DNA of 64,000 bases from positions 1,674,001 through 1,738,000 of the forward strand of contig CM114271.1 in assembly GCA_050084515.1 (NCBI GenBank), written 5' to 3'. Below the pieces are notes generated by a model. That model saw only the letters and a program-made list of their open reading frames with translations, was not told the origin of the DNA and searched no databases. The DNA comes from Blasia pusilla (lineage: Eukaryota). Position 1 is the first letter of the stretch, and every line of letters starts with the position of its first letter. Below are positions 2,323-55,921 of this stretch, one piece after another. Made by a program: the position numbers and the translations under genes.

Positions 2323-2944
2323 TGTGACGCAAAAATAGGTACAAGATTGGATTAATTAAGTGTCGTGCGTCTACTCTCCTTGAATGTTAATCTTGTTGTT
2401 GCGGAAGCGTGCGTTCAGTAGATCACGCTCTCAACGCTGATCTGCATCCAAACACACACTCTGGTTAGTCGGGTCTTGGATCAATCAGCGGGCTAACTTT
2501 CCAAGTTCTCGTCTCGGTCTCTCATCAAGCTCAACTTTCCTTGTTTCACGGTTTACAACACAAGCAAGTCTTGAAAGACTTGGGACATACTTTCTAGTCG
2601 GTTTAGGAATCTCAAATGGCGTTTCGTGCTTGGCGGTTCCAAGTGTCCGATGGACATCCAATGAGTCCCTAACCGAGACTCGCACAAAGTGAATCTCGGG
2701 TGGGAAGATCCAAGTGTGGTGTACAAAGTCTACTCCCTTGGATTAAGTTTGGCTGTCAATTTCCAACGCCAAACTCCCGTTCCATCCCATGCCTCTGAGA
2801 CGCCGCTTGGTGCTCAAAGTGGGGATTCGTGTTCCAAGACATCTTGGAGAGACTCCTCCCTTACAAGTACTTCTGGGGATCTCCGGGTTCCCTACATGTA
2901 GGGAAATACATCCGAGCCTCTCCAATTGGCCCTCAACTCTCACA
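2323..2944. repeat. Candidate LTR (unpaired) abutting the truncated 5' end of the Copia remnant
   Basis: Begins TGTGA and ends TCACA (terminal inverted 5-mer) and has no credible ORF. No TSD and no second copy in the window. Confidence 0.3.
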
Positions 2945-2974
2945 ATCATTTTCGGCCAATATCTCAATCTGTAC

Positions 2975-6087: not shown

Positions 6088-9000
6088 TATTGAAGATTGA
6101 GTTACAGTCAAGCTCAAGAGACACCTCAACTGCTACATTTGGTACTCACACAAAGTAGGGAAGCTTAATCTTGGTTAGTCAGTAAAGCGCGATTATCTTA
6201 ACTACGATTAGTTAATCGTAGTTAGTATAACTCGAGACTATGGTTAAGGTGAGGATTAGGATTGCTTGTACATATCTTATATAATTGAGAAGGGGACCAG
6301 CCTCCACTCATTCCCTTTTTTGCAAATTTTTTTCTCCATGGTGGTGTGAGAGCCGTTTCTCACCAGTTATGCTTCTTTAGCAGTTTTCCACACGGGCAAG
6401 GTAGGTACGAGAACTTGAGCCCATACAGACATGTCTATCATAGGGACGGACATAAGTCCACGGACACGGCCTTTCTCCATGTGCAACCTTGTTCAAGTGG
6501 TTCCAACTTATGCTAAAATAATTGGACCTTTCTCTGACTCATAGTACTACCCATTTCCTTTAGAACCCCCTCTCTTTGAAAGAAAATTCCCCCCTCTTGT
6601 GTCTACAAAGATTGAGAGAAAGAGATTGAAGAGGCTTAAGTTTGACTATTAAGCGTCTCCTCAACTACCGATTAGGCATGAGATATTACAACAAGTGTTC
6701 AAATGTAGTCCAAATGTAGTAATTGGTGGTGCATAAAATGAGGATTCTACAAAATATTCACAATAGAGTTATGAAGCATATGACACCTTCCAAAATTCCA
6801 TAAATCTGTCACGTTGAATAGTTCATGCGTAGCATTCTCTTGTGATGTGTCTTAAAAAATTCTTTTATAACGTAAATAGAAAATTCCTCCAATCTATATC
6901 CATATGGCTTCCCAAAATCTATCATAAAGGTAAGAGACAATGTCTCCCCTAGACAGTCCCATTGTCCTTACCATGGAATGTGCTTGCTCACTTTGTCTCT
7001 CCATACTCTCGGATCTCCACGTTCAATTATTCTCTAAGCATATACGATCCTCTCAAATTTTCCCATCCTCTCTTTGTAATGAGCTATATATGCACAAGGC
7101 ATGCAAAGACCTCTAGTGACGGAAAAGTCCACCATAAAGATACGGATCACTCCACAAAAAATGATGGCATGATAGAAAACAAGAGGTTCGATTGTAATTT
7201 GCATTGTAGATTAAACGAGAGCAATTCAAGGACGGAAGCATAAAGTGCAAAGTTCAAAGAGCCAACATAAGAGTGCCATTTTGAACTCATGGCCACGAAA
7301 TTGGCAACCAAAGTCAACACTTTTTCTTGAGCGCACTCACGGGAGAGAAGAATAAGCAAAGTCTGAAAATAAGATCAAGTCAGTAGGTCTCAAGATCTTG
7401 ATCTATGGGAATCCTAAGAAGGTGTTGCTACAAGGAAGCCACACCTCAAGAAGAAGATTGAGCGCCAAGAAAGCCACATTGATTGAGCAATAGTCTAAGA
7501 GAGCAAGAGGAAAGCGGAAGAAAAAATTTTGAAAGTGCAAAAACGGCAATGAAGAAGCAACTCATTGTGATTATAGTAGGAGAAGTGCAAGTTCAATCGC
7601 CAAAAGGCCATCCATTTATCCAACAACGTAAGAATGTGCTTAAACAGCGCTAGGTCTCTGCTTGCTACCAATGTACCATGTAGATTGAGAGGTAACAAGG
7701 AGGATAGGGCATGAGAATCAATGTTAAGTTGTGGAGTCGTGGGAGGAGTACTTAGGGCGGAAGCAACAATTGGAGGAGAAGTAGCCGTTAAAGAAAACCC
7801 TAAATTCAATGGTGAAATCCACAAAAGTAGATTCGAATGGCCAAATCTGACCGCGAAGAAGAGGCAGGAGGCAAACTAAGAATAATGGTTGCGCTTCTTT
7901 AAATAGGATCCCCATGGGAAGGAAACATAAGCCTCCGCACTAACTTTTGTAGCACCCACAGAGACCGCTTTGAGCGGCTCTATTGCCTCATGCTAACCCA
8001 TGATAGGAGGCCATGTCATTTACCCTAAAATAATAATGCACCTCCTACTCTCGAGATGTGTCTTTTGGGGCTCGAAGGTTTTGCCACGTGGAACCACTTA
8101 GCTATTTTCTAAAATTCTTTCAATTCTTTTCAAATAGTTATTCCAAAATACTTCCACTTGCCAAACCTAAACCCGACCATGATATCACATAAATTGCCCC
8201 ATTAAAGACATCCTCCATGTATATGACACTGAATTTTGATTATTTCCACTTTCCATGCCTTATTTTTTATGCCTTGCTCATGGATTTGATTTCACTTTTT
8301 ATCCAATAATTGCATCTCTTTAACTCATTTTGAATCAAAATGGCAAATTGAATTAATTTCAAGGATTTACTAAGTTCCTTTTATTTTATTTTTAGTGTGT
8401 CTTTTCTAGATAAAAACATTGAAGGGAAGTATTATAGGAATGGGAGACATGTCACTTCGAGACCTCACAAATTTTCCACTTACGTCTTTGACAAGAAAGA
8501 AATAAGAGACTTTACTGATTCAAAAATATCTAACGCAATTTCATGTTAAATAACTTGTATGTCACATATAGAGAAATTTGCATTTCAAACTATAACTTCA
8601 TTTGTCTACCTACCTCTAACAAGATATAACATGTTTTGTAGACTTCCTATTCCATCAAATCTTAAGAATGTATGAGATTTTAGGAAAGTGTTGCGGGGAG
8701 GCACAAAGATGAAAACATGTTGTTTGGGCAAAAAATACACAAGCAAAATGAAAGAATTCATCTTCCTCAAAAACTTTTACACTAACATATGCTCATATCT
8801 TGAACTTGTTCCAAGTTTTTTTTTCATTTTACTCTATCACGTAAGTCTTTTATAGTGGAACGATGGGTTTCCGTTTGTCGGTTCAATAGATTTTAGGGGT
8901 TGACTCCAATAGCTCATGCTTGACCTAATGGGGAGTAGGATAATATGCTAGAATAGGTTAGCCCCTTATTTGGGCCCATTTGGAGGTTATATAAGGAACT

Positions 9001-15600: not shown

Positions 15601-17232
15601 GATATGGATTGCCGTGGATAAGAACTCTCCCGTGGATAAACGTTCTCTACAATCGTGATAGCATGATTGCCTTTTTGAGTCCCCTATCACTTTTGATAAG
15701 TCAACCTGTCACCAAGCCAGTCATTTCCATTGACTCAGCTTTGTAAGACTTTGATTTGAAAGCATACTAATTTCTAATTTACTTATTGGTTTCTTATGTA
15801 GGTGAATGCACACTATTTTGAAGAAGGCAATGTTCAGCTGACTACCAGTTATGAGTGCCCAGACTCGACAATATTGCAGGTAACGTTCCTGCCGCTGAAG
15901 CTCGTAGAAAAGAATATGATATCCAGAGTCACTGTTATTTATTTACTGCTTTTGCTGGCTCTGGAGCCTTAGGCTCTGTATCTTGGAAGATAGAAAGTGT
16001 GAAAATGAAGACATCATCATTCCATCTTTAGACATATTCGTGGTGATGTAACTGTGAATAGCACTGAGTAGAGAATTTTCAGATTATGACATCTTTGCGT
16101 GAAATTTTAATTTGTAGGAAATGTAGAATGTCAGCAGACTTGTGGGAAAAACAAAGTTTTGTATGACTGGCTTCGTCTGGTCCTATCCTTGACTAAGAAA
16201 TTTCTTAAGGTTGTTTTTGCTCACAAAACCCGTGGTTTTCAATGGCTTTTATTTGTTCTAGGATGTAATTGGGACTGGAGTCTCCATTGTTACTGCAATC
16301 CGACATCAAGAATCTGAATATTTATCAGCTTTGGAGGTAATTATGTTATAGATCACTATAACTAGACAACACCTAGCAAACTTCCTTTTAATGCAGGGTG
16401 CTGACATTGGGATGTGTGGTGCATAGTTCCTAGTGTTTGTTCTTCTCTGCCTTTAAGGAAGCAGAGTAGTGTTAATAATGCTTCAGTTCAATTATTTATA
16501 GATTATGGTTCTCAGAAACTAGCTTTGCTACCTCTCTTACTGTCCAGCTGATGTGAATTATACTGTGGAAGCCTTGTAACCTTTGTCACTGAATAAGTGG
16601 ATCTGGCGTTTGGCAGGAAAAGTATGCCAATCTTTCAGACACGACTTTCAAGGTACTTAAACACCGTTGAAAATCTGTATCTTCACAGTTCTGACTAAAC
16701 ATCTTCATTGCATGATATGCGTCCTATGGCAGGCTTGGGGTCTTGAACCATGAGTTGGAACTTAGCATGTGAAACACTATGTGCTGTCCTTATCTTCTTA
16801 AATATTGATGAACATTTTAGAAGCGGCAATACTTAGTCCGTCGGGTCTTCACGGGCAATGGAAAGTTGTCCACCCAATCACTGTCAAACATTTTCACTAT
16901 CTGGAAGGAGACTTCTGCTGTTTGGTTCTGGCAGTTTGAATTTTTGTTTTATTACATAAAATTCCAAACCTTCTTCCATCTGTCCTATTCAATTTTTTGC
17001 AGCTTCACTTGAAGTTAGTGACTTCTTCTTGTTATATCTCGGTTCAATACTTAACTAATGTCTTTATCTGTGTTCTCCAATCTCGTCATTATAATGTTCA
17101 CATGGATAACTGCAGGAGTTACGGAGAAAACTTCCCATCACACGAACTCAGTTTGCATGGGACAAAGCTTTACAACTAAGCCTTTCCAGACAGGCAGCAA
17201 AGCAAATTTCTGTCCGCAGGCAAGTACATTAA
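12655..17232 (+). CDS. CPA: F-actin capping protein subunit alpha, 10 coding exons, 311 aa
   Basis: Exons 12655-12772, 13723-13838, 14480-14569, 14715-14779, 15013-15174, 15513-15591, 15802-15879, 16262-16336, 16617-16652 and 17116-17232 splice in frame (936 nt). Translation includes MADYFDEEEHVELEDHQKVALAKWFLLNAPSGEMQQVAKDVREVL...YLDPRTAQ...SPKNFRGGRWRSLW...AHYFEEGNVQL...LSDTTFKELRRKLPITRTQFAW, which contains the hallmark CapZ-alpha motifs. All introns are GT-AG except intron 3 (GC-AG). Confidence 0.96.
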
Positions 17233-21392: not shown

Positions 21393-23640
21393 TTGTCACA
21401 TCTTATTTCGACCAAGGTAGAATTCTGTCGCGTCAACAACATAGAGTGTCAATGGGCTGTTCGGATGTAACTTTGTCCCGAGATGTTAGATGAGGTTGGC
21501 GACACGTCTGTTGTGTCGGGAACGTCATTTGTAGTGATTTCCCTATGTTGGTTTTAGTCCGTCACGCAAGTTACCGCTAGTAGGGCTATTTTTGGGGGAA
21601 GAGCTTTTTGGCTCTTCCCAAGGGTACAAGAGTGAGAGAAATGGCTTTCTCAAGCCATCTTTTTCATGTTGAGCCTTAGCAGCACCTCTCTTGCATAGAC
21701 GTGTATGGATGTGTAGGAGTTAGGGTGTTAGCGTCTAGATTCCCTCATAGCAGAGGGTGGATGTGGTTCGATATGCCGATATAGATTCATGAGTGGAGTT
21801 TTAGGCCGGATGAGCCATTTTTACTACTCTTGATTTTACATGAGAAAGATGCAAGGGGGCAGGGAATTCGTTGTTTGCAGGTAAAGTGAGTTGCCTCGGT
21901 GGGGAGCCCGTGGAGACGCTGGTTGGCGTTTGTATGGTTGTTTTTCACTTTAGAAGGTTGTGCGCGGAAGCACTATCCATTTTTTTTTGTAAATTTTGCT
22001 GGTGCGGGTTGACGAGGGACAGCAGTAGAGTGTAGCGTGACGTGTGGCGACGGGTGTTTGCGAGTGATTGGCAGGAAATAGAGGAAAAGAGTTGGAGTAG
22101 GTCTTGCAGCCGCAAGAGGGCTGTCAAGTAAATGGCGGCTTGGCTAGGTCATAGCCGCCTAGGTCGGCTAGAGTTAGGTCGCGTAGGTTAAGGTAGAGTT
22201 TTGGGTTTGAGCGGCTGGGCAAGGAGCGGAGAGAGTTGTTGTAGACTCAAACAGAAGTATCGGGCGCGTCAAGACCGAGTGAAGGCCGTAGACGCTAAAA
22301 GTTGAAAATTCGTGTGGAGGGGTATTGAAGCCAAGCTAACAAGGGCCACAAAGCGAAGGGGGACCAGGCCGAGGGGATTGCGGCCGCATAGGGAGGCGTG
22401 TTCGTCTGAAAAGCTAATGCAATTAGGAGGGTGCAATTTGATCAGGCTTCAAAGATGAGGGGCTTCCGCATAGGGCACCATGTCAGCACAGGCATATACG
22501 TAAGGTGCTATAGGGCTAGCAGGCAGTTAAGGAGGGCCAGATCGGGTTCGGAGTAGGAACATTGAGTAGTAAAAACCTGCAAGAGTTTCGGGGGGTAAGG
22601 AAGTCGAGAGTGGAAGGAAGCACCTACAGCTAGGAGGATCCAAGGGAGTCATCATGACTCCAAAGATGGAGGAACAGGCATGGGCAGGTGTGCCCGCATA
22701 GGTCCGCGTACCAAACGAGTAGAGACAAAGCTTGATCCGTGAAGGTGGGAGGTACGAAGAGGGAGTGAGCTCGAAAGGCAGTGCCCAAGGAGGTCGAAGT
22801 TGGGGCTTAGGGATGCATGATGGGATTATGCAAGACGTAGGGACAACCAAGGGTTGGCAGGAGAGAGGCGCCCTAGGCGCATAGGAGTATGTTTTGGGCC
22901 AAAGGTGCCATAAGGACAGCAAGGGCCACCCGCATAGGGCGGCGAGCCCACGTCGAGTGGATAGAAGTGCGGGTCGTTAGGGGAGAAGGCCCCCTTCTTT
23001 CTCCGCGGGGCCGATTCCGGCCTCTTGAGGTCTATTTTTTGGGTCTCCATGCCCCCTCTTTTGTATCGTGATGGGTTTCCCATCCTTTTTCTACATATAT
23101 ATATATAATATTTCTTTACTCATGAAGTCCGGGGCTGAAGTGGGCGGAGTAAAAGGGAGCTGGATGAGCTCCAAAGGTGCACGGAGTGGGAGTCATTATG
23201 ACTCCATAAGAAAGGAAGAGTCGGAAGTAAGAAGCATGGGTCGAAAAAAAGGAGGTGAGGGCCGGCCGTATAGGTATGCGAGCCAAAGGGTCCGTACGGG
23301 AGGTAAGTGAGAGAGAGAGGGCCGGGTAGGGCCGTGCACAAGGTGGCGTGCCCTAAGACGTGGATAAGGCGGGCTCCGAGTGTGCGCGAGCGCGAGGAGG
23401 CTAACGTGGGAGTAGAAGGCAGAAGGATCGAAGGGAGAGAGAAGAAGACCGGGGTCGGCGGGAGATAGGAATGAGGTGGCGAGAGCTAACGTGGTTGCTA
23501 CTAGGCCGACGTGGTTACGAGCTGACTAGGTTAGGCAATGGATGTGATTGGCTATGGATATGGTTGATTTGGGCAAAATGGTAGGAGAGATTTTTGCGAT
23601 TGGGAATTTTCGAGCAGGGATCGCCATGGAGCAAGGTAAG
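21393..23640. repeat. G-rich non-coding repeat, probably LTR/UTR of a retroelement; related sequence at the window start
   Basis: Starts TGTCAC. The segment at about 22865-22915 (gaggcgccctaggcgcataggagtatgttttgggccaaaggtgcc) resembles positions 1-50 (gaggcgccctacgtgcagagggatacgtgacgagccaaaggtgtc). No recognisable protein. Boundaries approximate. Confidence 0.35.
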
Positions 23641-24279
23641 ACCAAGTGGATATACTCAGTATATCCAAATAAACATTTTGTCACTATAGGCATTCATATA
23701 CTTGTGAAATAACAAGAATTTACACTCATCAAAATAGCCTCAAGTGCAGACAAACTATAGTACTTCTTCCAAAAAACTTCTAACTTATTGGGAAATGGTG
23801 ATTGGTTTTATCTTGTCTTTCAAATTTTTTTTTTGAAATTCTTAAGTTCTCATAGAGAGTATTATGAAAGTGATCGGATGCATGATACTTTTGTCATGAA
23901 ATCAATCACTCTGTCGTTATTTAGGGTAAAGTGGCCAGTTGCATGATCACAATGAGTCATGCAAAAAATCACTTTTGCTCGCAACATGCACCATAACAAT
24001 TGAATGTAATAGGTTGCATGACAATAGGCTTGTATTGTAAACAAATAATTTCCTTCTAACACTACTCTTGAAAGTGATCAATCGTATGACCACACACTAG
24101 ACCAAACAGATCATACGACCGATCTCTTTCAAGATTAGAGTAAGATGAAAAGTGATTGATTACAAGATAATCATGTGGTCTTGCGACAAAAAACTTTCAG
24201 TCATACAAATCACAACCAAAAGTGATTGGTCGTATGAATTCACAATGGTAATGCACACTCGATGCTATGGCAATCATCT

Positions 24280-26469
24280 CTTGGCGTACCTGCAAAACAT
24301 CCCAAGAAGTCCAAGGTTATCTCTTCCGATCACCCGTGGTGTGTCGATCTCCTCGGGTCTTGCCCCTTGCCGCTGCCTCAACCGTCTTGGTAGGCATGGG
24401 CTCACTAACGCAATAGCTACGATATGTTGCATCCTCAAATGGGGCTGCTTAGCTACTCCTAAGCTGAAAATCCATGTCAAGCAATTCTGGTCCATCGTCT
24501 GACCCAAGACATCACGTCGTGATGCCTCTCATACTGACGGTACTGCCGTCACTCTTGTGGAGAATCCCATCGCTCTTTCTCATCAGCGTTGGGCTACACC
24601 AACCTCTGTACATGGTCAACCCAAACCAAGCCAGGTCCTCCCAAACCAAGCTAGGTCCGACCTCCTTGAATGCATAGGAAGCGGAAAAACTCACCAATGT
24701 GGGAAAGGCTGCCTGTGGCTTCCCAATCTTGTTGACCACAGTCAACGGCGATCGATCATCTAGCCTCACTGCCTGTGATTGACGGCCCGGATCCAATATA
24801 GAATCCACCAACAAATTGGAGGGATGCTCCACTCTCGCATATACCCTCCGTAATACCTCGTGTGGTACCAAGTTGCTCCACCAAAGACACGGGCAATGTG
24901 CTTGTGAACCTACACTCACCGTATCTAACAACACTGTCGGGTCGATCCATGCGCGCACCTGATGTGCACTCGTCACCACGCGGGACCTCAAATCGCCCAA
25001 AATTGGCACATTCTCCAAAATGTATGCTGGGGCCAGTAGCATTTAGGCCAAGTGATGGCACTGCTAAATGCTACTAAGGTCGCCATCTCTCATGGCCGTC
25101 GTTCAATCATTGCACCTGCGAATCAAACGCGTAACGAGCTAAGGCGCCCATCACCTGACTGCCATCCTAGTCTGTAGGACGCTGACTCCTCCCAGTAATC
25201 TAGGGAAAACCCCATCGGGTATAATACTGCTCCACCAACCAAGACGTCGTAGGACTCTGCATCAATCAATATCGCATTGGCTCGCACCACAGACTCATAT
25301 GTAGGATGTCCTTGGCGAATCCTTACCACAACCTCCAATCGGGTGATATATTGTGTGGTACTCGCTCCACCCAAGGATGTCTATACGTGGAATGGACAAC
25401 GCTCCACATCGGCTCTCGTCAAGCCCAATCTTCTAAATGACGCTTTTCCCAACATCAGGGGTTGCGCTCTTGAATCCAACAAGACGCGATGCGGACTAAA
25501 AGCTCTACCTCCGGGACTCACCAAATGGAAGACCTCTCCCCGGTTATCCAGCAATACAACACCAGGAGAAACCATGGCACGCTCTATCGCGGGTCTAGTG
25601 GGCATCTCCGCCATCCTAGCAGCCGCAGCCTGCCATGAATCTGACGTGGACGGCCGGAGCATCCGCTCCAAGGGCAGGTCCATCACCTCCTCTCCAATCA
25701 CCTCTAAACGTGATGCAGGAACTCCAACTCCACGCTCACATAGCGTAGTGGCCAGCCGAAAAATCTCGAAGGGCATACCTCCCAACGTCATAACATCAGA
25801 AGCAGAAAATAAAGTATTTTGGGTAAGTTTTATGTTGGGGATAGTTGAATTTCCACTTTGGGAAGTGGTCCTTGACCCGCTACAGTAGGTCGAGCGCGGT
25901 ACACAACGATGGCCGCCCCCAACAACATGCTCGACACATGCCCCTTTTGAGCATCAACAATAGGAGTCGTCGCACTTGCTTCTCCCATCGCCCTCCGTGC
26001 CTCCACACCGACAACATCACCAACTCTCCAAGAACTCTGATTAGGACCCATCAATGGGGTCCTCATCGCCTCGGACAACGTGAAAAACTGAGGAAGCCTA
26101 GTTTGTTTCCTAGCTTCCCCTCAGCTGTGGATCCAACTCTACGGCGAATCCCACGTCACAATGGCGGCGGCCTCCATCTAGGCAACCCCACACATCCAAC
26201 CAAGATCCTCCATATCTCTGGTTGCTCCATATGATGTCGATGCCACGGATCCGACATCGGGTAATCTCAATGCCATAGCGGCAATCTGCTCATGTAGCTG
26301 ATGTATTTGAGCAGCCATCCTAGCCTCAAGTCCGACGTCTCCCTTCAAGCGTCTAGGTGGTGAGACTCTACCTCCTCCACGGGAAGCTCCACCACCGTGT
26401 CAGGCAACTTCAGCTCCTCGTCCCCCAATGGGACCACCTAGTGCACGATCTCTAGGCCCACCCGGACGG
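24280..26469 (-). mobile_element. Gypsy family A, copy 1, internal fragment: gag tail, linker, aspartic protease and C5-DNA methyltransferase (partial)
   Basis: 25678-26469 aligns by eye with 52011-52730 of the Gypsy-PHD copy. It is followed by protease RVLLDSRAQPLMLG (LLDSGA-type)...YDVLVGG and then DNMT motifs. Confidence 0.85.
24465..25042 (-). pseudogene. C-terminal half (motifs VI-X) of a cytosine-5 DNA methyltransferase, DNMT3-like, embedded in Gypsy pol
   Basis: AYILENV (motif VI, ENV at 25015-25007). PTVLLDTVSVGSQAHCPCLWWSNL (motif VIII; compare DNMT3 [22 protein letters not shown]; the two Cys codons TGC/TGT are single C>T changes from Arg). After a frameshift, PNADEKE/AMGFSTRVT...SRRDVLGQTMDQNCLTWIF (motifs IX-X). 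Motifs I-IV are absent (internal deletion at about 25045). Confidence 0.85.
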
Positions 26470-27360
26470 GGGCTGGTATTCTGGCAAGAGAGAGAAAGAG
26501 AGGAGAGGAAGAGAGGAAGAGAGGAGAGTCTCTCTTAAAAAAAAAAAAAGGGCAGAATCCGCTCTCCTCTCTTCAAAATTTTTTGACATATTTGAAATTT
26601 TTGTTTGCTTTAAAATACAAGAAATCTTTAGAAGAGAGTAGCAAGTGGACCACATTCGGGCCTAAAGTAACCTCCTTTTTCCAGGGGAGAAAAAAATAGA
26701 CATCATAAGACTACTACAAACATTCTTCCATCACTCTCCATGTGAGCTTAAGTTTCTTCACATTGTCTGTCTCACTCTACAGTAAGCTGTGCCCATGGAT
26801 ATTTTTAACTACTCTAACTATGGTCTCAATAGACTGCGGTGTCCTTCAAGGTTTAACTTCTCGGAATATGTGGTTGACATTATGGATTGACATCTCTTCT
26901 TGCAAAAGGCATAAAATACTCCTCAATAAGGGGCAAAAGAAAGGCAAAAGGAAATGCCTTTAAATGATTGTTGACTCTTCTAGCAAAAGGCATCAATACT
27001 CATCCATAAGGGGGTTTTCCACAACAGAACAAATCGCTCGTCACTCATGGTAGCCTTAGACTTTCATTACATCATTTGATGATGTGGGCTCTTGAATGGG
27101 TGCACAAAGTATACCATGGACTGCTGTGCATTTGACAACTTGGTTTCACCATTCTCTCTGCCACTGAGAAATGTGAACACACGAGACGACAATTGAACCA
27201 AAAGATTGATAGCTGTCTGGAGTAAAGAGGAACTGATAAAAAAGAAAACGTGATCAGACGAGACGACAATTGAAGCAAAAGATATTTAGTTATTAGGAGT
27301 AAAGAGGAACTGACGCACCCATGTCCTTCATTCAGATCCTAAATCTGAGAATCTGAGAAG

Positions 27361-27780
27361 CTGCACCCCTCCCAACCCGTCGGAATTCGACAAGTTGCAA
27401 CTCTTGCAATCCGTCGGAATCGAATGGGTTGCACCCCTTGCAAGCAAGCTCACCATAACAAAAGAAGGATTTTTAGAAGTGATTCCATTCCGCCCTGCAC
27501 CCCATGAGAATGCAACAGGTTGGGAATCCTAAATGGCAATCCGACACGTAGTAGGAATCCAACACGTCTTAGAGAAGAGAAGAAGCCTACGACTGGTTTG
27601 ACGATAATATGGGAACGAGCCAAAAGTGAAGAAGCCCTCCAGAACGCCTCAAAACTTGGACTTACAAGGAAAGAGTCCGATCACTCAAGCAGCCAACCTG
27701 TCGGAATCTGAAAAGTTGCCTGAAAGTGGTTAAAATATTGTGAGAAGTTGCAACCCGTTGGAATCTCACGGGTTGCAAAA
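27361..27780. repeat. Left subterminal cluster of the palindromic motif TGCAACCCGTCGGAxTCCGACGGGTTGCA
   Basis: At least 5 degenerate copies, e.g. ttgcaacccgttggaatctcacgggttgcaa at about 27748-27778. Confidence 0.85.
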
Positions 27781-27883
27781 TAAACAGTCTGAGTAGATAG
27801 ACCAACACAATCGACAAGACCAAAAAAGATATTCAGCAAGCTTTTACAAACACCATCATAGATCAAAAAATTCTTGTCCTTTA

Positions 27884-29540
27884 TTACATCCGAGGGAAGC
27901 TCGAAAATGTATATTTGATCTTGTCTATGATTTCTTCAGCCTTGTCATCTACAAATTTACTCCTAACTCTCCTAGGTTCCAGTACAAAAGAAATGTCCTG
28001 GGATACAAGTGGCTCCTCTGGCCGATTGTAGACCGGGATCAAAATGTCGGGGAATTTGAGAGCCTTGGCCCCCCCCCTAGGTACACCATAACGGTCCCAT
28101 GTAACCTGATTTGAGTCCCACCGCCTTCCTCGGCAGTAAATCTTGTACCCTCTGCAAGGCGACATCCATCCAATATCAATATGTGCTCGGTCCTTTGGAA
28201 ACCAATAAATCCCTACTCCAAAACGCTCCAGTCAAGCTGGGTCCTTTAGTTCTTTGAACTCACTCCTCATCGTCCAAGAGCTCTTCCAGAATTACTGTCG
28301 GCCTTGCCCTCTCGATTTTTGGAATAGTGGGAAGTGACGATTGTGTCACTACCAATGGTGGGTTTGGAACCAGAGCTCTCGGCTTTGGAGGAGAGTTGTA
28401 TGCTCGAACTAGCCTGTCGTAATCTGCCTTTGCCTCTTTGCAAAGGTCATAAAGTTCCTGCCTTCCCTCAAGGCAGATAATGTTCCTGCCACTTTGCCAG
28501 GCGCCTCTGATACTCGCCCTTGATAGGCCCACTAAGTCGAAGACCAAGTCACCCGGCCTTGAACAGAGCTCGATGAGCGCTTGCATCAAGGCAGGGGACT
28601 TTTCCCTTCCTCCAAGTAAGGGGGTTTCGTCTTGCATGTAAATTCCTGGGAGGGAATTGTATAAACTATCTAAGCTGTACCCATCGGAGCATAAAACGAC
28701 TCAATCCAGGATCTGGAACACCTGGAAGTTGTGCTCGGGCCTTACAAAACAGTAAACCCTAAACCTGCTTCTTTACAGATGGTCCATGTGTAAAGAAGCA
28801 GGTTGGAAACAATGTCACCAAAAAGAAAGAGGTACTTGACCGCTGGTCTACTCTCAATATGGTGACATAATGTGCAACACGTTCATAGTGCATTCTAGTT
28901 CGTGTTGATTACCAACCCATAAGAACTTGGCCTAAAGTCCTAACAGTAGAGCAACCTGTCGGAGTCCAACGGGTTGTTTTACAAGTATAATTGTTTTTTT
29001 TTGCCATGAGCAACCCGTCGGAAGCCGATAGGTTGTTGGCTTAGAGCAACTCGTCGCTTTCCGACGGGTTGCATCACTCCAGAAACACAAGGAAAAGCAC
29101 AAGTACTTGCAACCCGGCGGATTCCGACGGGTTGCCCTCACTCAATGGAGATTTGTGGTAAATTTGCAACCCGTCGCTTTCAGACGGATTGCAACACCCC
29201 AGCCACAAGCTGTTGGGATCCGATGGGTTGCATGCAGAGATGCAACCCGTCAGAGCCCGACGGATTGAATTTGGATTAAGAGCCCTTTCCCGGACTTGAC
29301 TTGTCGCCAATCGGAGTGGATACTCGTTCTTGATGATCCATGATTGCGTTGTCCTCCACTTCAGTGACCTATTCACGCACTGAAGGTTGAAGAGCTTGTC
29401 CTCGCTCCCTCCAGTCAAGACCAAGAAACAACCCTTGTCACTCAGTTAAGCGTCTGCAAAAGAAAACAAAAGCGCGATCTGGTCATAGGTAAGAGGGACA
29501 TTCCAGTCTGGGACAGGAGGATGTGGCAAAGAAAGGAGCC
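27884..29540 (-). pseudogene. N4-cytosine/N6-adenine (beta-class, N6_N4_Mtase-like) DNA methyltransferase, 5'-truncated, spliced
   Basis: Inferred exons ~29540-29296, 28939-28917 and 28764-28260 (GT-AG, in frame) read PPVPDWNVPLTYDQIALLFSFADA*LSDKGCFLVL...SWIIKNEYPL...FRVYCFVR...GGREKSPALMQALIELCSRPGDLVFDLVGLSRASIRGAWQSGRNIICLE. This matches the K-P-x-x-L...L-I...S-x-P-G-D-L-V-x-D-x-F-x-G-S-G-x-x...G-R-x-x-I-x-x-E (motif X-I-II) pattern. Two in-frame stops. A frameshifted C-terminal extension runs to 27884. Catalytic motif IV is not present. Confidence 0.78.
28950..29270. repeat. Array of about 7 copies of the same palindrome inside the methyltransferase intron
   Basis: e.g. tgcaacccggcggattccgacgggttgc at about 29108 and tgcaacccgtcgctttcagacggattgca at about 29165. 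Confidence 0.9.
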
Positions 29541-32416
29541 GAGGTCTACAGAAACTCTCCGGGTTCAAATCCCGGAGTGATCAAGCTCACAACGGCATCA
29601 CAAATTTTTGAACAATTGCTTGGAATCCCTGGACAGGGCGAGATTACGGCGGTTGAGGAGAAACAACTCTGGGAGAATCTCGCATTTCTCGCTGATCCTG
29701 TATGCTTCCGGAATTTGCTGCGTCAAATACGAGTTCTGGATGGAAAGACGGCCGAAATGGATGCCATCGCCAGAATCAAGGCCAACTCCAGATTTCCATT
29801 CATTCAGAGATGGTAGTTCATGGGCCAAGGAGGCGAGGGATCCAGGCCTATGTCTTCAAAATGTCAACCACAGTCCGTCGAGTGGCCTCGATCTTATAGA
29901 TCGAATGAGGGAAGGGAAGATCTTTACGGGAGTTGGGTAAGCTTTGATATTTGCTCAGAGTCTTTGAACGGATGGTTGACGATGGGTGCTCACGTTTATG
30001 ACCATGTGGAGAAGGGACTCAAAACTATATTTGTCTGTGAAGTAAAAGCGTAAGACGTTGGCGTTTGAAGATGTCTTTGGTTACTCTTATTGGAGGTGGT
30101 GAAGGAAAACAAAAGGCCACCTCCGGAAATTTATGGGTTCATGGCGGACAATGCACAACCTGGGTGGATTGCTATCCGGGAAGTGTTTCGGGGTGAGAGG
30201 TTCAACTGGAGAGGGAAAGGTCGGATGCTTTCCATTGGCAACAGTCTGTGACCCGGTACACCAAATCTTGCATCAAGGAGAATAAGAGGACAGAGCATGT
30301 CACTCTACTCCAACGCTGCAAGGACAGCAAAACCTTGAAGCATGCCATGGAATGCGAGGAAGAACTTCATGGGTGGTGGAGGAAGCATGCGATTGAGGGG
30401 AAGTACAAAGAATTGTGCTCTTGGTTGAGTTGGTGGACTGTACGTATGAGACAATGGGGAAACTTCATGCGGCAGGTGAGTTCACTATTTTGTCTTGTCA
30501 AGCTCACGCTGAGAATTGTTTGTAAAGTTGTAGCTCAGGGTGAGAAGCGTGGGAACTATATGGATTTCAAACGGAAGAAACCAAGCAAGCTGTCGGATGC
30601 GACGGGTTGCCCGAGTGTGCAACCCGACGGAAACCGAGGGGTTGCATCCAGATGTTTGGTGCAACCCGAGTGTGCAACCCATCGGGACCCGACGGGTCAC
30701 AGAGTCGTTCATGGGATGCCTCGGCCTTGCAACCCGTCCGGTTCCGATGGGTTGCAGTAGGTGGGTTTAAGGTTACAACACGTCGGGACCCGACGGGTCG
30801 CAGAGTCGTTCATGGGATATCTCGGGCCTACAACCCATCTGGTTCCGACAAGTCGCTTATTTCTTTGAATCCTGAGTTATTTTCGTTCCCTTCTAACATT
30901 GCTGTCGTTGCAGGGATTGAACGTTCATGAAAATGCCCTCTACCCCAACACAAGTGGAGCAGAAAGTGTTCATTCCTCTTGGAGGTCGTCACAAGCATGC
31001 CAACGAATTTCACTTGTGGAGGCATGCCAACAAGACCAGGCAAGAGCAATGCTACAGTCTGCAGCATCCCATATCTTCCTCACAAAAGGCATAACAAAAG
31101 GAAAGGGGTCGTCGATCTACGAGCTCTATGTCAGAGCGGCTGTGAGATCTGGTGATGAAAAATTGTATGTCGAAGCCTTCAACCGGTGCGTAGCTGGAAC
31201 TCCACTCGAGCAAGACGTACACATAGGTGGGGATATTTGTGGGCGGGTTTCAAGATGTCCCATACAGATGGTGGTAGAGCCATCCGAACGAGACTCGTGG
31301 AGACTAGATAAGTATCTTGACTTGAGCGAGGTGAAGAGGCGAGCATCGAACGAATCCGGTGATTGATTTGGATGAGGAAATTACACCGCCCAGGTATTCG
31401 GGGACCCCGGACCCGTCCCAAATCCGTGATGGAGTTACTTCTCCAAAATCAGTGAATGTTTTATTTCAAAAGCCCTCCGTTGCTGGAAGTTCGCAACATC
31501 CTGTCACTGGGGTGGTTCAACAATATGGGATTCCGGTAATGGAGGTGGATTGCAACCTAAAATGGTGGCATATATCTCGGAGCAACCCAGGACGTGGACC
31601 CACCTGCAGGGCAGGATCTAATGGCATTAGGAGAGCATGCGGCACTTTCCTAAATAAGAACTGTACAAGGATCGGGCGATTACCACGCTCGGGTTTTGGG
31701 AACTCAAAACCTTTGATCGTTTCACGAGGACCGGGGATCAATTGAAGTACTTCTTCTGCCCAAATGAATCTTGGGCTTTCCGGAAGTCTTATCCGGCTGC
31801 CATTGGAGCTCCCAGGAATACCCCCACGATTTGGCCCATCGCCGCAGGCACGAACCGCACTCAAGACGAAGTGGACAATCTTACAAGTGCCGGTTTCAGA
31901 CTCGTAGATGGGGGAAGTTCGGAGCATGTTCGCATTACAGAGACCTTCGCATTTTGTATTCAACCCAAGATTGATGTCAACATGTACCCGGAGAAGGTGG
32001 ATGATCTCAATCCATTATTTCTGTTTGAGTCTAGAAATGGGGTGAAGAGAAACAGAATGTGCAGGCCAACGGTGGAGAGAGCAAAGCGAATTGCATAAGC
32101 TCGGGAGGCAAAAATGGAGATCATCGCCACGAAAGATGTCTTGAGTGGCAATGGAATAGGAAGGATGTATTGGGTCAAGAACAACACTGTAAATTCAAGT
32201 GTCACAGGGATGTATGTGGTGCACATCTGTTGCTTTCCCACATGTTCATGTGATGACTTTGTCCAAAGAGAGACAAGTGGCAAAAGGTATTTCCCTTGTA
32301 AGCACATGTACTATGTGTTGCTGGTAGTTTTAAGAGAGTCGGAGGTAGGAGTAAGAATCCACCAACCAATTCTGTCCCTCAAAGAAGTTCGAAGTATTTT
32401 AAACAAACCACTTTGA
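29541..32416 (+). pseudogene. MULE-like DDE transposase with C-terminal SWIM zinc finger, 5'-truncated, one intron (30476-30913)
   Basis: Across frameshifts: WVSFD (D1), TMGAHVYD, YGFMADNAQPGWIAIREVF (D2), DAFHWQQS (C/DxxH), W-rich segment WLSWWTVRMRQWG, then CAG/GTGAG...TTGCAG intron, PNTSGAESVHSSW (catalytic E), and SWIM YVVHICCFPTCSCDDF...PCKHMYYV. Confidence 0.85.
30585..30856. repeat. Array of about 6 copies of the same palindrome inside the transposase intron
   Basis: e.g. tgcaacccgtccggttccgatgggttgca at about 30728. Single copies also occur at about 32593 and 32712 near the right end. Confidence 0.9.
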
Positions 32417-34389: not shown

Positions 34390-37300
34390 AATTCTCTTTG
34401 AAGGCTAGAATATCCTCTATGCGACCTCTTGAGATAACATTTGCCACACATGTGCATGATCCTCATCTATCTCAGTTGCCTCCATATCTTCTTCTTGACT
34501 AAATCTAGCTCTAGACAACATGTCAGCTACTGAGTTCTCTTTCCCAGTTATATGCTTGAATTGTGGATTCATGGACCTAATGTAGGCTATCCAACGTAGC
34601 ATGGCTATATCTGGAGTCCTACAATTCGCAATCATACCCAACAGAGGTAGACAATCAACCTCAAGAAATACATAAGCTCCCATAATACCCTTCTCAGCTT
34701 TCATTGCAGTTACAACTCCCCAAAGTTCTCTCTTTACTTGAGGGTACCTCCTCTCTCATTCTGTGAGTGTACGAGCTCCAAACCTTGTCGGAAATCTTCT
34801 TCCTTCCGTTTCATCCTGGCCAACTTCCCACCCAATAGCAATAGGGCTAGTGTCCACTGTGATGATAATAGGTCTTCCGCATTTATAACTCATTTGTCGT
34901 AGAACTAGTGGCGACTTCAATGCCTCCTTCAACTGCATCATTGCTGCTCCTTGCTTCTTCTCCCAAGTGAACTTTTTCTTCTTTCTCAACAGCTCATACA
35001 AAGGATCAAATATGTGGCCAAAATGAGGAATCCACACCGATAAAACACACAAGCTCCTAAAAACCTTCTCACTTCGGTGACGTTTTAGCATTCTCGTATC
35101 CTCCCGATGACATCAACTTTTGCAGGATTAGGTTTTCAGGCCAAACTCTCCACAAAGATGACCCACTACCACAATTTGAGGAACTCCAAAGCTACACTTT
35201 TCTCCATAAAGAGTAAGATTGACCTCTTCTAGTCTTGTTAGGATCATATCCACATCACGAATATGATCAGACACAAACTTTCTACATCTATCTTTCACAA
35301 CCCTCTCATTCCTATCTTCTATTGCACATCCCTTTATAGGAATATCATCTACAAAAGGAATGGTCTTCTCAGGAATGAATTCTCTCAAGATTTTATTCAT
35401 TGCACTCTACATGTGAGCGACAAAATTTGTTGCTCCTTGAGGTAATGTGCACATTCTTACAAGCCCAAGTGGAGTGCGCATAGTGATAATATCTCTACTC
35501 TCCATAGCTAGTTGGAATTTATCATATTATGAGTGCAAATCTTCTATCAAATAGATACCACGGGCTGCAAAAGCTTTTGCGACTTCATCTATTCTAGGCT
35601 TCGCTCCCATATTTTGAATGGTTACCTTATTTGCTGGTTGCATATCTTGAATGAATCGGAGAGCTCCTGATTTCTTCGGCACACTGAACCATCAAGTCGA
35701 GTAAGGCCCCATAGATGGCTCTAAGATACCCATCTTTATCTTCTCCTTCAATAACTCAATCAGCTTGGGAATCATAGCTCGTGGTACTAGTATAGGTTTC
35801 AAATCCCAAGGCACATATGGAACTGTGAAAATTACCATCGGTGCCACCACACTCGTGTCTACACAACCAATTTCTTGTGTAGTAAAAGAGAAGGACTTAC
35901 CATGTCTCTTGAACTTCTCCCGAAAGCTTTTCCTTTCAATTTTTGCGAGAAACTCACCCCCTCCAATTTGCAGACGATCTAGCGTCTCTTCTGTGAACTT
36001 GTGTCCGATCTTCCTGACATCCCGTAGACTTGGCTCCAGTGATGCACGTTCTACTTGTTTTCCACAACCCTCTGGTAGTTGAGTAGCCATTGGTTTCATC
36101 TTCCGGGCCATCGTCTTGTATTTCATGTGCACTCGTGCCTCCATGGGATGTTCTTCAACCTCAAACTTGTGCTCTTCCTCTTCCTTCTCCGTAATTCATA
36201 TCCATTTTCTCCTTCCATAAACCTTGATATTTCTTCATGCAACTCACGCGAGTGAATTGTAATCATACTTGTATCCAATGAATCGGTGCTCATCTAGGTG
36301 AACATCTCTTCAAGACTATCCCAAAACTCTCTTCTTCATACATCCCACTAATGAACTCTTCATCTAATAGAACATCCTTACATTTTAACAAACCCTTTTT
36401 TTTCCATAAAACATCTTTTCTTTTCATTCATTTCTTTCATCATTTGGAATGTACTAGACCACGAAGAAAAACATTGAGAAAACCCACACCTAAACATATA
36501 TGATTCTTCCCCTTTGCTTGCGGAAGACTCTTTCTTTTCTCTGCACCCCCATATTCCCGCTCTACAAAAGTGCTAACTAAAAATCCGAAAACTCCTTCTC
36601 TACCTTCATAGGATCATCTCTCAACTTCTCCCTATTCCTTTTATGATCTACTCGTACAGTAAGGAATTGAACTGATCTTGTTCCATCTTGACTTCTAATA
36701 CGGGCATAATGAGACCAATCATCCATGATTTTGGTCTCCATTCTAGATGCTGTGATGTAAGGTTGCCCAAGAATCGTAGAATAAGGAGCTCCATTCTAAA
36801 CAAAAAAATTTTGCTCAATCAACACATCTCCGATACGAGTTTTGACGGATGGACAAGCACCGTAGAGTTCACCATTTTGGTTGTTAGCCACTCGTGGTAC
36901 CCATCCATGCCTTGTATCAATTGTCCATATCCCTTTGTCATATACACTTCGCGACATGATGTTGATCTCCGAACCATTATCAACGAGAGCCAAAACTGAC
37001 TCTTGGAGAGAGCCAAGTCGAAATCTAGCCTCCGTCGTTGCACGTGCCCAATATGACCGAGAATAGTGTCCAACATTGTGCGTTTCTTCACCTTTTTCTA
37101 TCAAGGTTTTTCTTACTCTTGCCTCTTCTTCCCGTAAGTCAAGCTTTTGTCCAAAATCTTGGCAAAGCTCTTCATCTTCTTCTTCTGTGATGTCAGTATC
37201 CAAAACCCTCACCATCACCATATCTGCAGTCATCTGCCTCTTCCTTTTGATCACATCTATGATCAACTCATGAAAGTCACGTTTGGCTATGCCCAAAACT

Positions 37301-39076
37301 TCCCTTAGAGAAAACTCTATTTTTGCATCCAAAATCCTCTCCTCAAGAATCTCCTTCAAATTCGTGTTTGTCTCGATATCAGACTACACCTTGTATGTAA
37401 GAGTCCTACCCTTGGTCTTCTGAGGAGACCTCAATTCGTTCCCCTTCATCCCTGCTTCTTTGACTTGAGAATCCCTCATAGATTCAAATGTGGAAGGTCC
37501 TTCTTCTCTTGATGGTTGTGCCTCCGGTTGCCTTTTTCTTCTTATGGTCCTCGCTCTTCTTGCAGCTTCCTTACCATCAACACCATTATTATCGCGTCTC
37601 CTCTTCTTCTCCATTCTAGCATCTTGCCAACTCACATGGTTCTCTTGTGCTAGGTATGCTTTAACAGACCTAGCTTCCATTGGATCATCCCATCCAGTCA
37701 GATGACGGATAGTCTCTGCCCCTCGTACCATTGCTTCTCGAGGAAATTGTAATGATTCACTTTTAGCTACAGATACAATAGGCGCTTTTATTTTTACTGC
37801 AAAGGTATCAGAATCTAATGCCGTAGTGACAACTCCTACTTGAATTCTCACAAAGCCTTTCATTCTTCCTCTACCAAAGTTGATATTCAACGGCATACTA
37901 GTATGCGTTAAATGAATCTTCTCATCTTTAAAGTTTACTATTCCATTCCTAAGAGCTTCTGAAAACTCCTCACATTCTTGACGTTGATGCTCAACATTAT
38001 CATACCATATACATCTTCTGACAAAGTTTTTATTTTTCAAAGCAACACCAACACTATGATTCCTATCTAGTTTAAGCTCAGTCATTTCTACTCTCAATTC
38101 TCTTAAATCTTTCACCAACTCATCAATGACAGAATCTTCAAGTTTTGCTGACATGGGCTTAAGCAATGGATTTGAAATTGATACCTCCGACTTGAATAAT
38201 GCGGTTCTACCTCTACTTCGACTTTGCTTTGTGAGGATAACAACATCTTCTTCCACTTTCTTCCAACTAGTGCTGACACCTCCTTCTTCGGTCTTGTCCG
38301 CCAATATTATGAAAAGCTTATCCTCCAAATTCTCATCTGCCGTCTCAAGGAATAACTTTGTTTTCCTCAAGTCTAGAGTTGCCCTTTCAAAAGAAGAAAG
38401 CTGAAAAAACCGTTTCTCAAACTCACGCAACAATTTATTTGGAGTCATTGCCTTCCTTGGACATTGCTCTATCCATTCTAGAAAACTCCTCTTAGTCACC
38501 TGATCCGCATCATCATCGAAGAATTCTCCTTTCAACAACTGTTCATACTCCTCCCACAAGGTTGGATTTTCTATTCTCAACTTCTTTACTTGACTACGAA
38601 TCTTTGGTATTATAGCTAACTCAAAACTTGACACCATATCACCTTTGAATACACGGTTTATCTCCATCTCACAGTCGTACTTTCGAACATATTTGGTGAT
38701 GTTCCTCCCATCAAATCTCCCCAACTTTTTTACGATCGCTTGGAGAGCCTTTGTTGATCTTTGCTCTCCTATGTGAACTCCTCCTTATTAGCTCAACAAT
38801 GTTGTCAAAGTTTGGAGAAGATCTTCAGCTCCCTTAGTTCTCATTGATCAAATATTACCAAAAGTAGTCATCTTGATAAGACTTCAACTTGCAAAAACAG
38901 TCTACCACTTGAATGATCTCTCAGTAGAAGCACCATTTGTCGTGTCGAGAGTCTTTCTTCGAGTAAGGATGGATCTTCTAACTGCGACAGACGTGATCGA
39001 TGCAAAATGCACTCTCTAAAAAGTTTTTTTTTTTCAAAACAAAATTATTATGTATACTCTTCATTCTCTTACGACA
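34390..39076 (-). mobile_element. Gypsy family B degenerate element: LTR remnant, PBS-like site, gag, protease, RT, RNase H; integrase missing
   Basis: Gag GRFDGRNITKY (38724-37384), protease LALVDNGSEINIMS, RT GILEPSMGPYS...IPFVDDIPIK, RNase H IITVDTSPIAIGW...HITGKENSVADMLSR. TGTCGT...ACGACA LTR remnant at 38938-39076, followed on the minus strand by TGGTGCTTCTACTGAGAG. Confidence 0.9.
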
Positions 39077-47093: not shown

Positions 47094-47518
47094 TGTCGTG
47101 CGCATAAACATCGCTACAAAACATACATCATCGTCGACATACATACACACAAACACGCACGATCCGATGTTGACTCATGGCATCCAAACAATCAGACAAG
47201 AAATACCAAAATATCTCCCCCTCCCAAGCTCTCTCCTCGGTAATCTATGCTCGCACGTCACCTCCTTGGATCTTGACCTGTTGTAGTGGGTCAAGGGCCA
47301 CTTCCCAAAGTGGAAAGTAAACTCTACCAAACATGGAAACTTGCCCAAAATAGTAAGTTTCTCTATATGGCTCCAAATGAGCCGAAACGAAGGGAAAACC
47401 TGCTCTCTTAGGTTTCCCAAGACCTTAGCAGGTCATCCTCAACCTCTTGAGTTTGTCCTCCTCTACACGCAAAGGCGCTCTACCAGATCTCTCCGATCTA
47501 TCCTAAAAAGTCGTGATA
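47094..47518 (-). repeat. LTR of Gypsy family A
   Basis: 47220-47518 is highly similar to 55990-56267. Termini TGTCGT...GTGATA. Its left part is repeated in the adjacent LTR 47521-47730. Confidence 0.75.
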
Positions 47519-47899
47519 GCTGTCGTGCGCATACACATCGTTGTCGACAAACATACATACAAACACGCATGAATTAGCATACATACAAACATCGTGCGTG
47601 TTTGTATGTATGCTAACTCATGGCATCCAAACAATGAGACAAGAAGTACCAAAATATCTCCAATCATCCCCTAGTTGGTGGTTAGGTCCCTCTAACTCTA
47701 GATAGCCATCTATCCCTACCTACCATGACATACATCTCTCGGACGCTAAGAGCAAGAAGGTCAGGTGCTCATGTGGCCCCATCGTTAGTCGCCTTCTTGT
47801 CAACCACATCACAGACAAAAGTTAAAATCTAGAACTACCTACCTTATGTACATCTGGGACACATCCATTGTCCCTTGAGAACCCTAGTGAGAGGTGGCG

Positions 47900-55100: not shown

Positions 55101-55921
55101 TCCTAAGATTGAGGGTCAACACCCCCAAAAATGGGATCTACTCACCCTACCTCCAAATAGTTGAATTCAATTGTCCTATCCACCAAGTAAACTGAATTTT
55201 TTTTCTACCTCTCAAGAAAGAATTTCTACCCAAAAATTTCAAAATTTCACTCACACCTTGGAATGGTGGCTATGGCAGCCCAACAAAAATGATCATACCT
55301 CCATGCTCCAATCTCCAAATTGTGCACCATTTTCTTCAGCAGCGTACATCACTTCCCGATCTACGACCTTGTCAAATTGGTTCTCCATTTGATTTTCCAC
55401 TAAGAACTGACAGGGACTGTCCTGCAGCCCAACGTCTCTTTCTCCTACGCAAAATTCAGCAGCGCTTCCGCGCTGATTTCTCCCAACGAAAATGTAAAGT
55501 CTATGAAAATAAAAATCAGCAATCTACACGGAGCTCTTAGAGCACCGGCATGGGGCAACCCGCTCCCATACTCAATCCCTATCAAAAATTGGGCAGTGCT
55601 TCCGTGCGCCACTCTTCCACATGAAAAATCAGCAAAGGAAACATCAAAAGTAAGCAGCTCTTGCTCCGGTGAGCAGTCCCATGAACCGCTCAATGGGGAA
55701 TACGATCTCCAACCTGCAAAACCAGCGAGTGACCAACAAGCTCCCCCATGAAGCTCTCTCACTCACTAATTCTCTCTTTGTAAATCAAGTAGATCCAATC
55801 TCTCTCACCACCATAGCTCTCAAATGTGTGCACTCTCTCTCAATGTCAAACCAAACCCACTCTCCTAATGAAAGGCTTGGGTTACACTCACAAGGCAAGG
55901 GACCATAGCTCCGCCGCCTCA

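Follow-up and report, generated by a model that had tools for sequence, protein, structure and literature searches.

Cytosine methylation is the main weapon of the host against transposons, and a transposon equipped with a de novo methyltransferase of its own notably inverts this defence. Transposon-borne de novo methyltransferases have been described from dinoflagellates and from one charophyte alga (PMC5890265). The Gypsy-Dnmt3 elements were later referred to as occurring in 'streptophytes' (PMC12344493; bioRxiv 10.64898/2026.05.21.726589). In the available text of PMC5890265, the words Marchantia, liverwort, moss, and Physcomitrella are absent, and no paper naming a retrotransposon with a DNA methyltransferase (DNMT) in Marchantia, liverworts, or mosses was found in the literature; supplements or subscription journals might hold one. 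Here, an element of this kind was analyzed in a 64,000-nucleotide stretch of Blasia pusilla DNA (contig CM114271.1, positions 1,674,001 to 1,738,000), which is called the window and within which all coordinates are counted. The segment at 24254-26467 (minus strand), hereafter copy A, is very probably a dead, doubly truncated fragment of the Ty3/Gypsy type, from a family whose gag-pol has a DNMT3-like domain placed after the protease and before the reverse transcriptase (RT).

The fragment and its intact relatives

Copy A was delimited by tblastn with polyproteins of Marchantia, Calypogeia, and Sphagnum and by the loose ends of sequencing reads. The reads, from one DNA run (approximately 1% sampled) and three RNA runs of the same species, were mapped to 22000-28000 at 80% likeness. 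Copy A is approximately 2.2 kb long and is cut off at both ends, the truncation points being marked by the loose ends of 1138 reads at 24254 and of 979 reads at 26467; below 24211, at its border, the DNA depth drops from approximately 1500 to approximately 0. On the minus strand, the fragment comprises a C-terminal part of gag (26043-26336; 35% identity to residues 392-490 of the Marchantia protein P0004 by tblastn), a retropepsin-type protease region with three in-frame stops (25045-25812; 49% identity to P0004 residues 529-785), and the C-terminal half of a predicted DNMT3-like C5 methyltransferase with motifs VI, VIII, IX, and X (24296-25033; P0004 residues 1011-1243). The last assignment was obtained from tblastn, from the comparison of an intact relative, P0001, with DNMT3A, and from a family profile searched against the PDB. 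The motif numbering follows the usual nomenclature, and the computed result is the equivalence to DNMT3A positions.

The protease frame (25812-25045) reads WQAAAARM...RVLLDSRAQPLMLGK...YDVLVGGAVLYPMGF...ITWP, with the catalytic DSG changed to DSR, and it holds the whole protease stretch from RVLLDSRAQ to YDVLVGG. At the deletion junction that follows (25031-25043, minus strand), residue 785 of P0004 lies at 25042 and residue 1011 at 25033 in tblastn, and approximately 225 residues, namely a spacer and DNMT motifs I-V, are gone. This deletion is private to copy A, and its detection from the sequence in the first-pass annotation, which had described motifs I-IV as lost, was correct. An open reading frame (ORF) of 176 residues (24515-25042, minus strand), in another frame than the protease, begins ...PAYILENV and contains GSQAHCPCLWWSNL. 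Downstream of the latter come a tandem duplication of 20 bp and the second small frameshift, and then PNADEKER/AMGF and RRDVLGQTMDQNCLTWI; within ADEKER/AMGF the frame shifts near 24579, and VLGQTMD is found at approximately 24500. ENV is thus read intact, motif VIII is kept with its RxR changed to CxC, motif IX is split by the frameshift, and motif X is present. The methyltransferase part contains two frameshifts and two stops, and copy A in total contains five stops and two frameshifts. In copy A, no RT, ribonuclease H (RNaseH), or integrase was found downstream of the DNMT half by tblastn with the bryophyte polyproteins. As motifs I-V, RT, RNaseH, and integrase are gone and the rest is interrupted by stops and frameshifts, copy A is a dead fossil without any function.

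The cysteine codons of motif VIII are TGC and TGT where the relatives encode arginine. Both substitutions had been noted before from the sequence alone and are confirmed by the relatives, in which the arginines are near-invariant. Both R>C substitutions fall on CGN codons, which is compatible with methylation-driven decay. The observed/expected ratio of CpG was 0.76 in copy A and 0.68 in the whole window, and that of TpG 1.28 and 1.15, respectively. As these ratios are near those of the window itself, copy A carries no special mark of methylation-driven decay.

The relatives of the fragment were reached through one protein. The window ORF had a sole near-length homologue, the intact P0001 of 279 residues (67% identity, E 3.7e-50), and no homologue among longer proteins; these were found only with P0001 as the query. 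P0001 contains ENV, AHRPRLWWTNL, ADERERAMGFP, and RRQVLGQAMD. In a phmmer search against the PDB, its best matches were DNMT3A chains (E 0.005), and 24 of the 34 rows were DNMT3A, 3B, or 3C; the alignments with DNMT3A fall on the motifs, including ENV and RQRLLGRSWS of DNMT3A. The motif strings quoted for this place on the minus strand in the first-pass annotation are present, and their recurrence in an intact protein that aligns with DNMT3A takes them beyond chance. P0001, which covers only the C-terminal half, had no match in a Pfam scan.

With P0001, 38 long homologues were found, 13 from Marchantia polymorpha, two from Calypogeia fissa, two from Sphagnum, and 21 others; the 13 Marchantia proteins are annotated merely as hypothetical or as cytosine methyltransferase. 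PF00145 is listed in the precomputed Pfam annotation of 31 of the 38, Marchantia, Calypogeia, and Sphagnum proteins among them, and is frequently accompanied by RVT_1, RT_RNaseH, rve, Integrase_H2C2, zf-CCHC, Asp_protease_2, or PHD. Direct Pfam scans of relatives gave PF00145 above its gathering cut-off of 22 bits in 5/6 and 3/5 proteins (24.7-48.9 bits), mainly at profile positions of approximately 46-157, that is, motifs IV-VIII. In the same kind of scan, Asp_protease_2 and gag-asp_proteas scored 18-22.4 bits, below their curated cut-offs; PF13650 is listed for 4/38 long homologues in the precomputed annotation, and PF13650/PF13975 matches were also obtained in scanned relatives. The protease consensus of the family is LLDxGAQP...SYDVLVG. 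The Pfam scans of relatives showed neither PWWP nor ADD nor any other reader domain of the host type.

The order of the complete polyprotein was read from P0076, one uninterrupted ORF of 2188 residues, in which the Pfam scan placed CCHC at 530, protease at 796-888, DNMT at 978-1226, RT at 1421-1575, RNaseH at 1638-1766, and integrase at 1895-2061. P0013 and P0017 agreed in part with the order of protease, RT, RNaseH, and integrase. Since gag, protease, DNMT, RT, RNaseH, and integrase stand in one frame, the methyltransferase is made together with RT and integrase. In ten aligned proteins with both protease and DNMT, motif I reads LFGGISTGLAAV and motif IV AGWPCQG, followed by ENV, GSRAHRPRxWWTNL, ADERERAMGF, and RRxxLGQAMDLN; the motif order is I-IV-VI-VIII-IX-X, unrearranged. 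Among 126 full domains, F.G is kept in 102, the motif IV cysteine in 120, EN of motif VI in 123, and RxR in 121. The FxG and PC motifs that the first-pass annotation had named as a check are found in most full domains of the family, with PCQ in the alignment.

The neighbourhood of protease and DNMT could also be fortuitous, a piece of a host DNMT3 pseudogene having come to lie beside an unrelated Gypsy protease through nested insertions. The deletion of copy A is situated precisely between the two parts, which stand in different frames, and their continuity is unreadable from copy A alone. This explanation is hardly credible, since single proteins of three bryophyte genera, and many metagenome ORFs as well, contain protease and DNMT in colinear arrangement, and 47 of 205 sorted proteins show the protease-DNMT and/or the DNMT-RT order. 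Moreover, 1546 and 772 DNA reads bridge from the protease and from ENV, respectively, into the missing middle, and the depth of the DNMT half is approximately 1500-1700. The single ORF of P0076, the repeat-level depth, and the bridging reads likewise dispose of the concern that the DNMT segment is a one-off insertion or out of frame with pol. A family in which the domain belongs to gag-pol accordingly remains the preferred reading.

Affinity of the domain and its two settings

A profile built from the ten proteins with protease and DNMT was compared with the PDB. The 29 top sequences were DNMT3A, 3B, and 3C (2.8e-20 to 1.5e-15), followed by 4onj (4.5e-10), which we take to be DRM, and by HaeIII (2e-7), DRM2 (2e-6), HhaI (4e-6), and DNMT2 (8e-4); no row named DNMT1 was among the 57 PDB matches of the profile. 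The DRM match was confined to profile positions 328-454 (motif I to approximately IV), aligned to DRM residues of approximately 225-349 in its C-terminal part, which fits the rearranged motif order of DRM. Because DNMT3 leads the profile matches and the motif order is preserved, the methyltransferase domain of the family is, as judged from its sequence, DNMT3-like and non-rearranged.

The extent of the family was estimated with P0001 among 1.84 billion proteins. The search returned 955 representatives of clusters at 50% identity with E<=1e-3, 506 at 1e-10, and 73 at 1e-30. Of ten representatives looked up, P0040 is from Calypogeia fissa and the others are metagenome records. When 205 proteins were assigned to classes by blastp against reference segments, two settings of the domain emerged. 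Besides the 47 already mentioned, 78 show the order RT/RNaseH-DNMT and/or DNMT-integrase(-PHD), 78 have DNMT alone, and two have neither. The second architecture, RT-RNaseH-DNMT-integrase-PHD, was found in metagenome proteins and has a homologous DNMT (40-47% identity to P0001) with a DDE integrase and Gypsy-type RT/RNaseH. It differs from the first in that the DNMT follows RNaseH and not the protease, a PHD finger stands at the C-terminus, motif IV is mostly ECQ and not PCQ, and motif VI frequently reads ENT.

In the DNMT trees, the two architectures fell on opposite sides, with a support of 98 both in FastTree (127 rows) and in a quick IQ-TREE run (49 rows). Copy A, in whose translation each break was bridged by an X, was placed in a 15-row clade with every named bryophyte row, with a Shimodaira-Hasegawa-like approximate likelihood-ratio test (SH-aLRT) support of 100 in the 49-row tree; in the 127-row tree, this clade had a support of 99. 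Its neighbour in the 49-row tree was Calypogeia, a leafy liverwort (support 83; 68% identity over 183 columns). The smaller tree left out P0039, P0115, P0192, P0193, 55 of the 65 rows of the second architecture, and 19 of the 24 DNMT-only rows.

Copy number, transcription, and element ends

The DNA depth was 1475-1707 over the DNMT half, 2111-2579 over the protease, and 1743-2119 over gag, compared with 0-5.6 in eight flanking bins (22201-22803 and 23206-24210). From these values, roughly 600-1000 copy-equivalents of the family were estimated, a rough figure given the thin flank baseline. As the depth of the DNMT half is approximately two thirds of that of the protease, the DNMT is a feature of the family. 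At the edges of the deletion in copy A, 1546 DNA reads have loose ends at 25044 and 772 at 25030, which run into the missing part. Their consensus, translated by hand, reads ...WP continued by SDLIEGHVHA on one side and RHLQEHQSRS continued by PAYILENV on the other, matching ...SWPSELLEGNLHA of the Calypogeia protein P0002 and LRHLQEQQTRSPAYILENV of P0004. Consequently, other copies in the genome keep the missing N-terminal half, in frame with ENV.

The RNA depth over the fragment was 28-78 with the first mate on the plus strand and 0.2-13 with the first mate on the minus strand. In usual stranded libraries, this corresponds to sense (minus-strand) RNA of the family. The loose end at 25044 was seen again in the RNA reads. 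The earlier proposal of a related Gypsy-DNMT lineage that is present in land plants and was amplified in this genome is hence upheld by the bryophyte homologues, the high DNA depth, and the sense transcripts. In the flank, the segment 22804-23205 showed a DNA depth of approximately 21-109 and RNA up to approximately 70 on both strands, within surroundings that are single-copy and silent, and it had no Rfam match; a search of Rfam with 22000-28500 gave no match at all.

A second member of the family, copy B, lies in the same window at 47167-56258 (minus strand). As determined by tblastn and from its repeats, it is a 9.1-kb element without protease and DNMT, arranged as A-internal-B-A'-B'. Its gag runs from 53798 to 52032, and the coding sequence jumps at 52013 into RT-RNaseH-integrase, which ends at 49116 (tblastn). 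The identity of the DNA of copies A and B is 83-91% over their common gag part and 83% over 25892-26470, and outside the element the flanks of copy A have nothing in common with the copy B region. Repeat A, on the 5' side (55989-56258, minus strand), is 80.6% identical over 294 aligned columns to its direct repeat A' on the 3' side (47216-47509, minus strand). The 52-bp repeat B (47610-47661, minus strand), just upstream of A' in the orientation of the element, is 92% identical to B' at the 3' end (47167-47218, minus strand). A 77-bp segment within copy A (25815-25891, minus strand) is similar to a portion of copy B's repeat A, in the opposite orientation (blastn: 56042-56125 and 47272-47352). 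This segment is missing from copy B and from many other genomic copies, with the joint 25814->25892 found in 752 DNA reads, and it is polymorphic among the copies of the family.

The existence of copy B, an element without DNMT in the same window, would agree with capture of the domain by copy A or a small subfamily only. Such a restricted capture is scarcely believable, as copy B, which lacks the protease as well, has the appearance of a deletion derivative, the DNMT half reaches approximately two thirds of the protease depth genome-wide, and the domain is common to liverwort and moss elements.

The repeats of copy B recur in the metagenome locus L046, where A (7065-7401), B (15699-15813), A' (15818-16154), and B' (16154-16268) follow one another in the same manner, with 337 bp at 90.8% identity for A and 115 bp at 93.9% for B. 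Among eight to ten related loci, homology begins at the A repeat and stops at B. Since the A-internal-B-A-B layout of copy B and L046 is typical of DIRS elements according to the available text of PMC5890265, the family might be regarded as a DIRS-like element with a tyrosine recombinase and not as Gypsy. This assignment is very unlikely. The relatives carry Integrase_H2C2, rve (DDE), RT_RNaseH, and RT_RNaseH_2 in the order protease-RT-RNaseH-integrase, copy B reads gag-RT-RNaseH-integrase, and no phage-integrase family was found in the Pfam scans of relatives. In addition, the elements of Klebsormidium nitens likewise mix DIRS-like repeats with Gypsy domains, as far as the same text goes. The Gypsy-type assignment was therefore retained, with repeats of a DIRS-like layout in some copies.

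Among the related metagenome loci, L001-L080, many contigs of up to 59 kb from a few metagenome projects hold near-full-length decayed copies, 82-91% identical mutually; these contigs look like bryophyte host DNA inside metagenomes.

Other features were observed in the window. An ORF of 146 residues at 28263-28700 (minus strand), possibly together with 29290-29445 (minus strand), resembles the C-terminal end of a PF01555 (N6/N4) DNA methyltransferase (...PGDLVFDLVG...). Its PF01555 match in Pfam (E 0.0015, 18.9 bits) is below the cut-off of 26.7, and in a protein cluster search (E 0.94) all 30 of 30 matches were PF01555 clusters. Situated in repeated DNA 2 kb upstream of copy A and on its strand, this ORF may have come from a transposon with a methyltransferase or may be related to the liverwort N4-methylcytosine (4mC) enzyme. 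No Pfam match was obtained for ten neighbouring ORFs at 27884-32095. At 34432-38784 (minus strand), an unrelated Gypsy-like element was found, the RT/RNaseH of which is 24-26% identical to the family, with ORFs of 466 and 195 residues upstream. Finally, a run of ORFs at 2747-4866 (plus strand) resembles a Copia-type integrase region, as read from the ORF text only.

Possible role and comparison with described elements

As for a role, the DNMT3-like domain, which is translated within gag-pol between protease and RT and keeps its catalytic residues, would most likely methylate CG on new double-stranded complementary DNA (cDNA) or on DNA at and around the insertion site. The SymbioDIRS-Dnmt3 domain carried out de novo CG methylation in yeast (PMC5890265), and a CG-methylating role is suggested because of the analogy with this domain and with DNMT3A; from the same analogy we infer an enzyme activity, its substrate, and a benefit to the element. 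Self-methylation of the cDNA of the element may be its purpose, with a likelihood judged just short of even. The roles discussed in the available text of PMC5890265 include escape from foreign-DNA recognition, protection from deaminases, and self-limitation.

It is less likely, though possible, that the domain was kept for another catalytic or targeting role, for example, for acting on host DNA near insertions or on RNA, or as a pure DNA-binding or targeting module. Several alternative roles have been considered in PMC5890265, no activity has been demonstrated for a Gypsy-borne DNMT, and the second architecture, which places the DNMT beside integrase and a PHD finger in 78/205 proteins, fits chromatin targeting. 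Against a mere binding function, the cysteine of motif IV, EN of motif VI, and RxR are kept in 120, 123, and 121 of the 126 domains, which favors catalysis, and the nearest solved relatives are de novo DNA methyltransferases.

Several points weigh against the assignment of copy A to a Gypsy-type family with a DNMT3-like domain, and against the role proposed above. Copy A, being truncated, has no terminal repeats, and a Pfam scan of five of its pieces at E<=10 gave 0 families for 5/5. The PF00145 match anticipated for the fragment itself was thus not obtained, while the intact relatives do match; the reason is that PF00145 matches the family at profile positions of approximately 46-157, mostly deleted here. 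The 176-residue ORF had no match in the PDB with phmmer, and the family assignment is thus made via the relatives. A flanking direct repeat of approximately 160-340 bp (the 3' copy of A) was found in just 3 of the 11 elements examined; other copies terminate as A-internal-B, and the A-B-A-B layout was not seen in L038, L029, L018, L040, L049, and L026, where flanks of 3.5 kb on both sides held no direct repeat. Among the 80 related metagenome loci, 76 have no ORF of at least 900 residues and four have one, so that most copies are decayed. The copy number is based on a read sample of approximately 1% with a flank depth of just 0-5.6. Nearly all RNA reads are less than 95% like copy A (1-6 reads per run at least 99%), and the transcripts therefore come from other copies. 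The trees contain the transposon-borne domains without rows for host DNMT3, DRM, or K. nitens and are unrooted relative to host genes; as they hold no host DNMT3, they are silent on how often the DNMT was captured. The mechanism is proposed by analogy, and the KnitGypsy-Dnmt3 domain was inactive in yeast, a result that its authors regarded as inconclusive (PMC5890265).

Provided that there are intact copies, a land plant would be expressing a de novo methyltransferase of transposon origin, which might add to the host methylation or disturb it. With the Gypsy-DNMT3 kind extended to liverworts and mosses, its role and its effect on the host methylome become approachable in tractable land plants with methylome and genetic tools. 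Tentatively, the bryophyte elements with the order protease-DNMT-RT may carry on the Klebsormidium Gypsy-DNMT3 lineage in land plants, having escaped notice in Marchantia, Calypogeia, and Sphagnum, with around a thousand copies and sense transcription in B. pusilla, and may be part of a larger radiation of two architectures in uncultured eukaryotes (955 clusters); this broader view is put forward as a possibility that is rather less than even.

Among the described systems, KnitGypsy-Dnmt3 of K. nitens is the most similar. According to the available text of PMC5890265, it has a Dnmt3-type, non-rearranged domain in the pol ORF, a Gypsy composition, conserved catalytic residues, and DIRS-like A-coding-B-A-B repeats, the last being found here in copy B and L046. 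The likeness was established by description and not by sequence. The hosts differ, being liverworts, mosses, and B. pusilla here, and K. nitens was described as having 'fewer copies', whereas the number here is of the order of 10^3. SymbioDIRS-Dnmt3 of Symbiodinium also has a Dnmt3-type domain in a pol polyprotein and A-coding-B-A-B repeats, but it has a tyrosine recombinase and belongs to another class of retrotransposons, unlike the present family with its DDE integrase and Gypsy-type order. The dinoflagellate elements had been described in the first-pass annotation as carrying Dnmt5; this needs correction, as PMC5890265, in the part available, gives Dnmt3 for the DIRS element and a Symbiodinium-specific DNMT clade for a long interspersed nuclear element (LINE).

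Host DNMT3 shares with the family the unrearranged motifs I, IV, VI, VIII, IX, and X, and DNMT3A/B/C are the best solved matches. The domain of the family differs from host DNMT3 and DRM in being embedded in a gag-pol frame, and DRM scores far lower (4.5e-10 and 2e-6). DAM-LTR/EpiLTR are also retrotransposons with DNA methyltransferase domains; however, these are prokaryote-type adenine methyltransferases, their DNMTs group with DNMT4, and the authors set them apart from the streptophyte Gypsy-DNMT3 elements, as stated in the available part of the preprint (bioRxiv 10.64898/2026.05.21.726589). Compared with these systems, the family of copy A is of a kind known in print, and what is new is its land-plant host range, its high copy number, and its expression.

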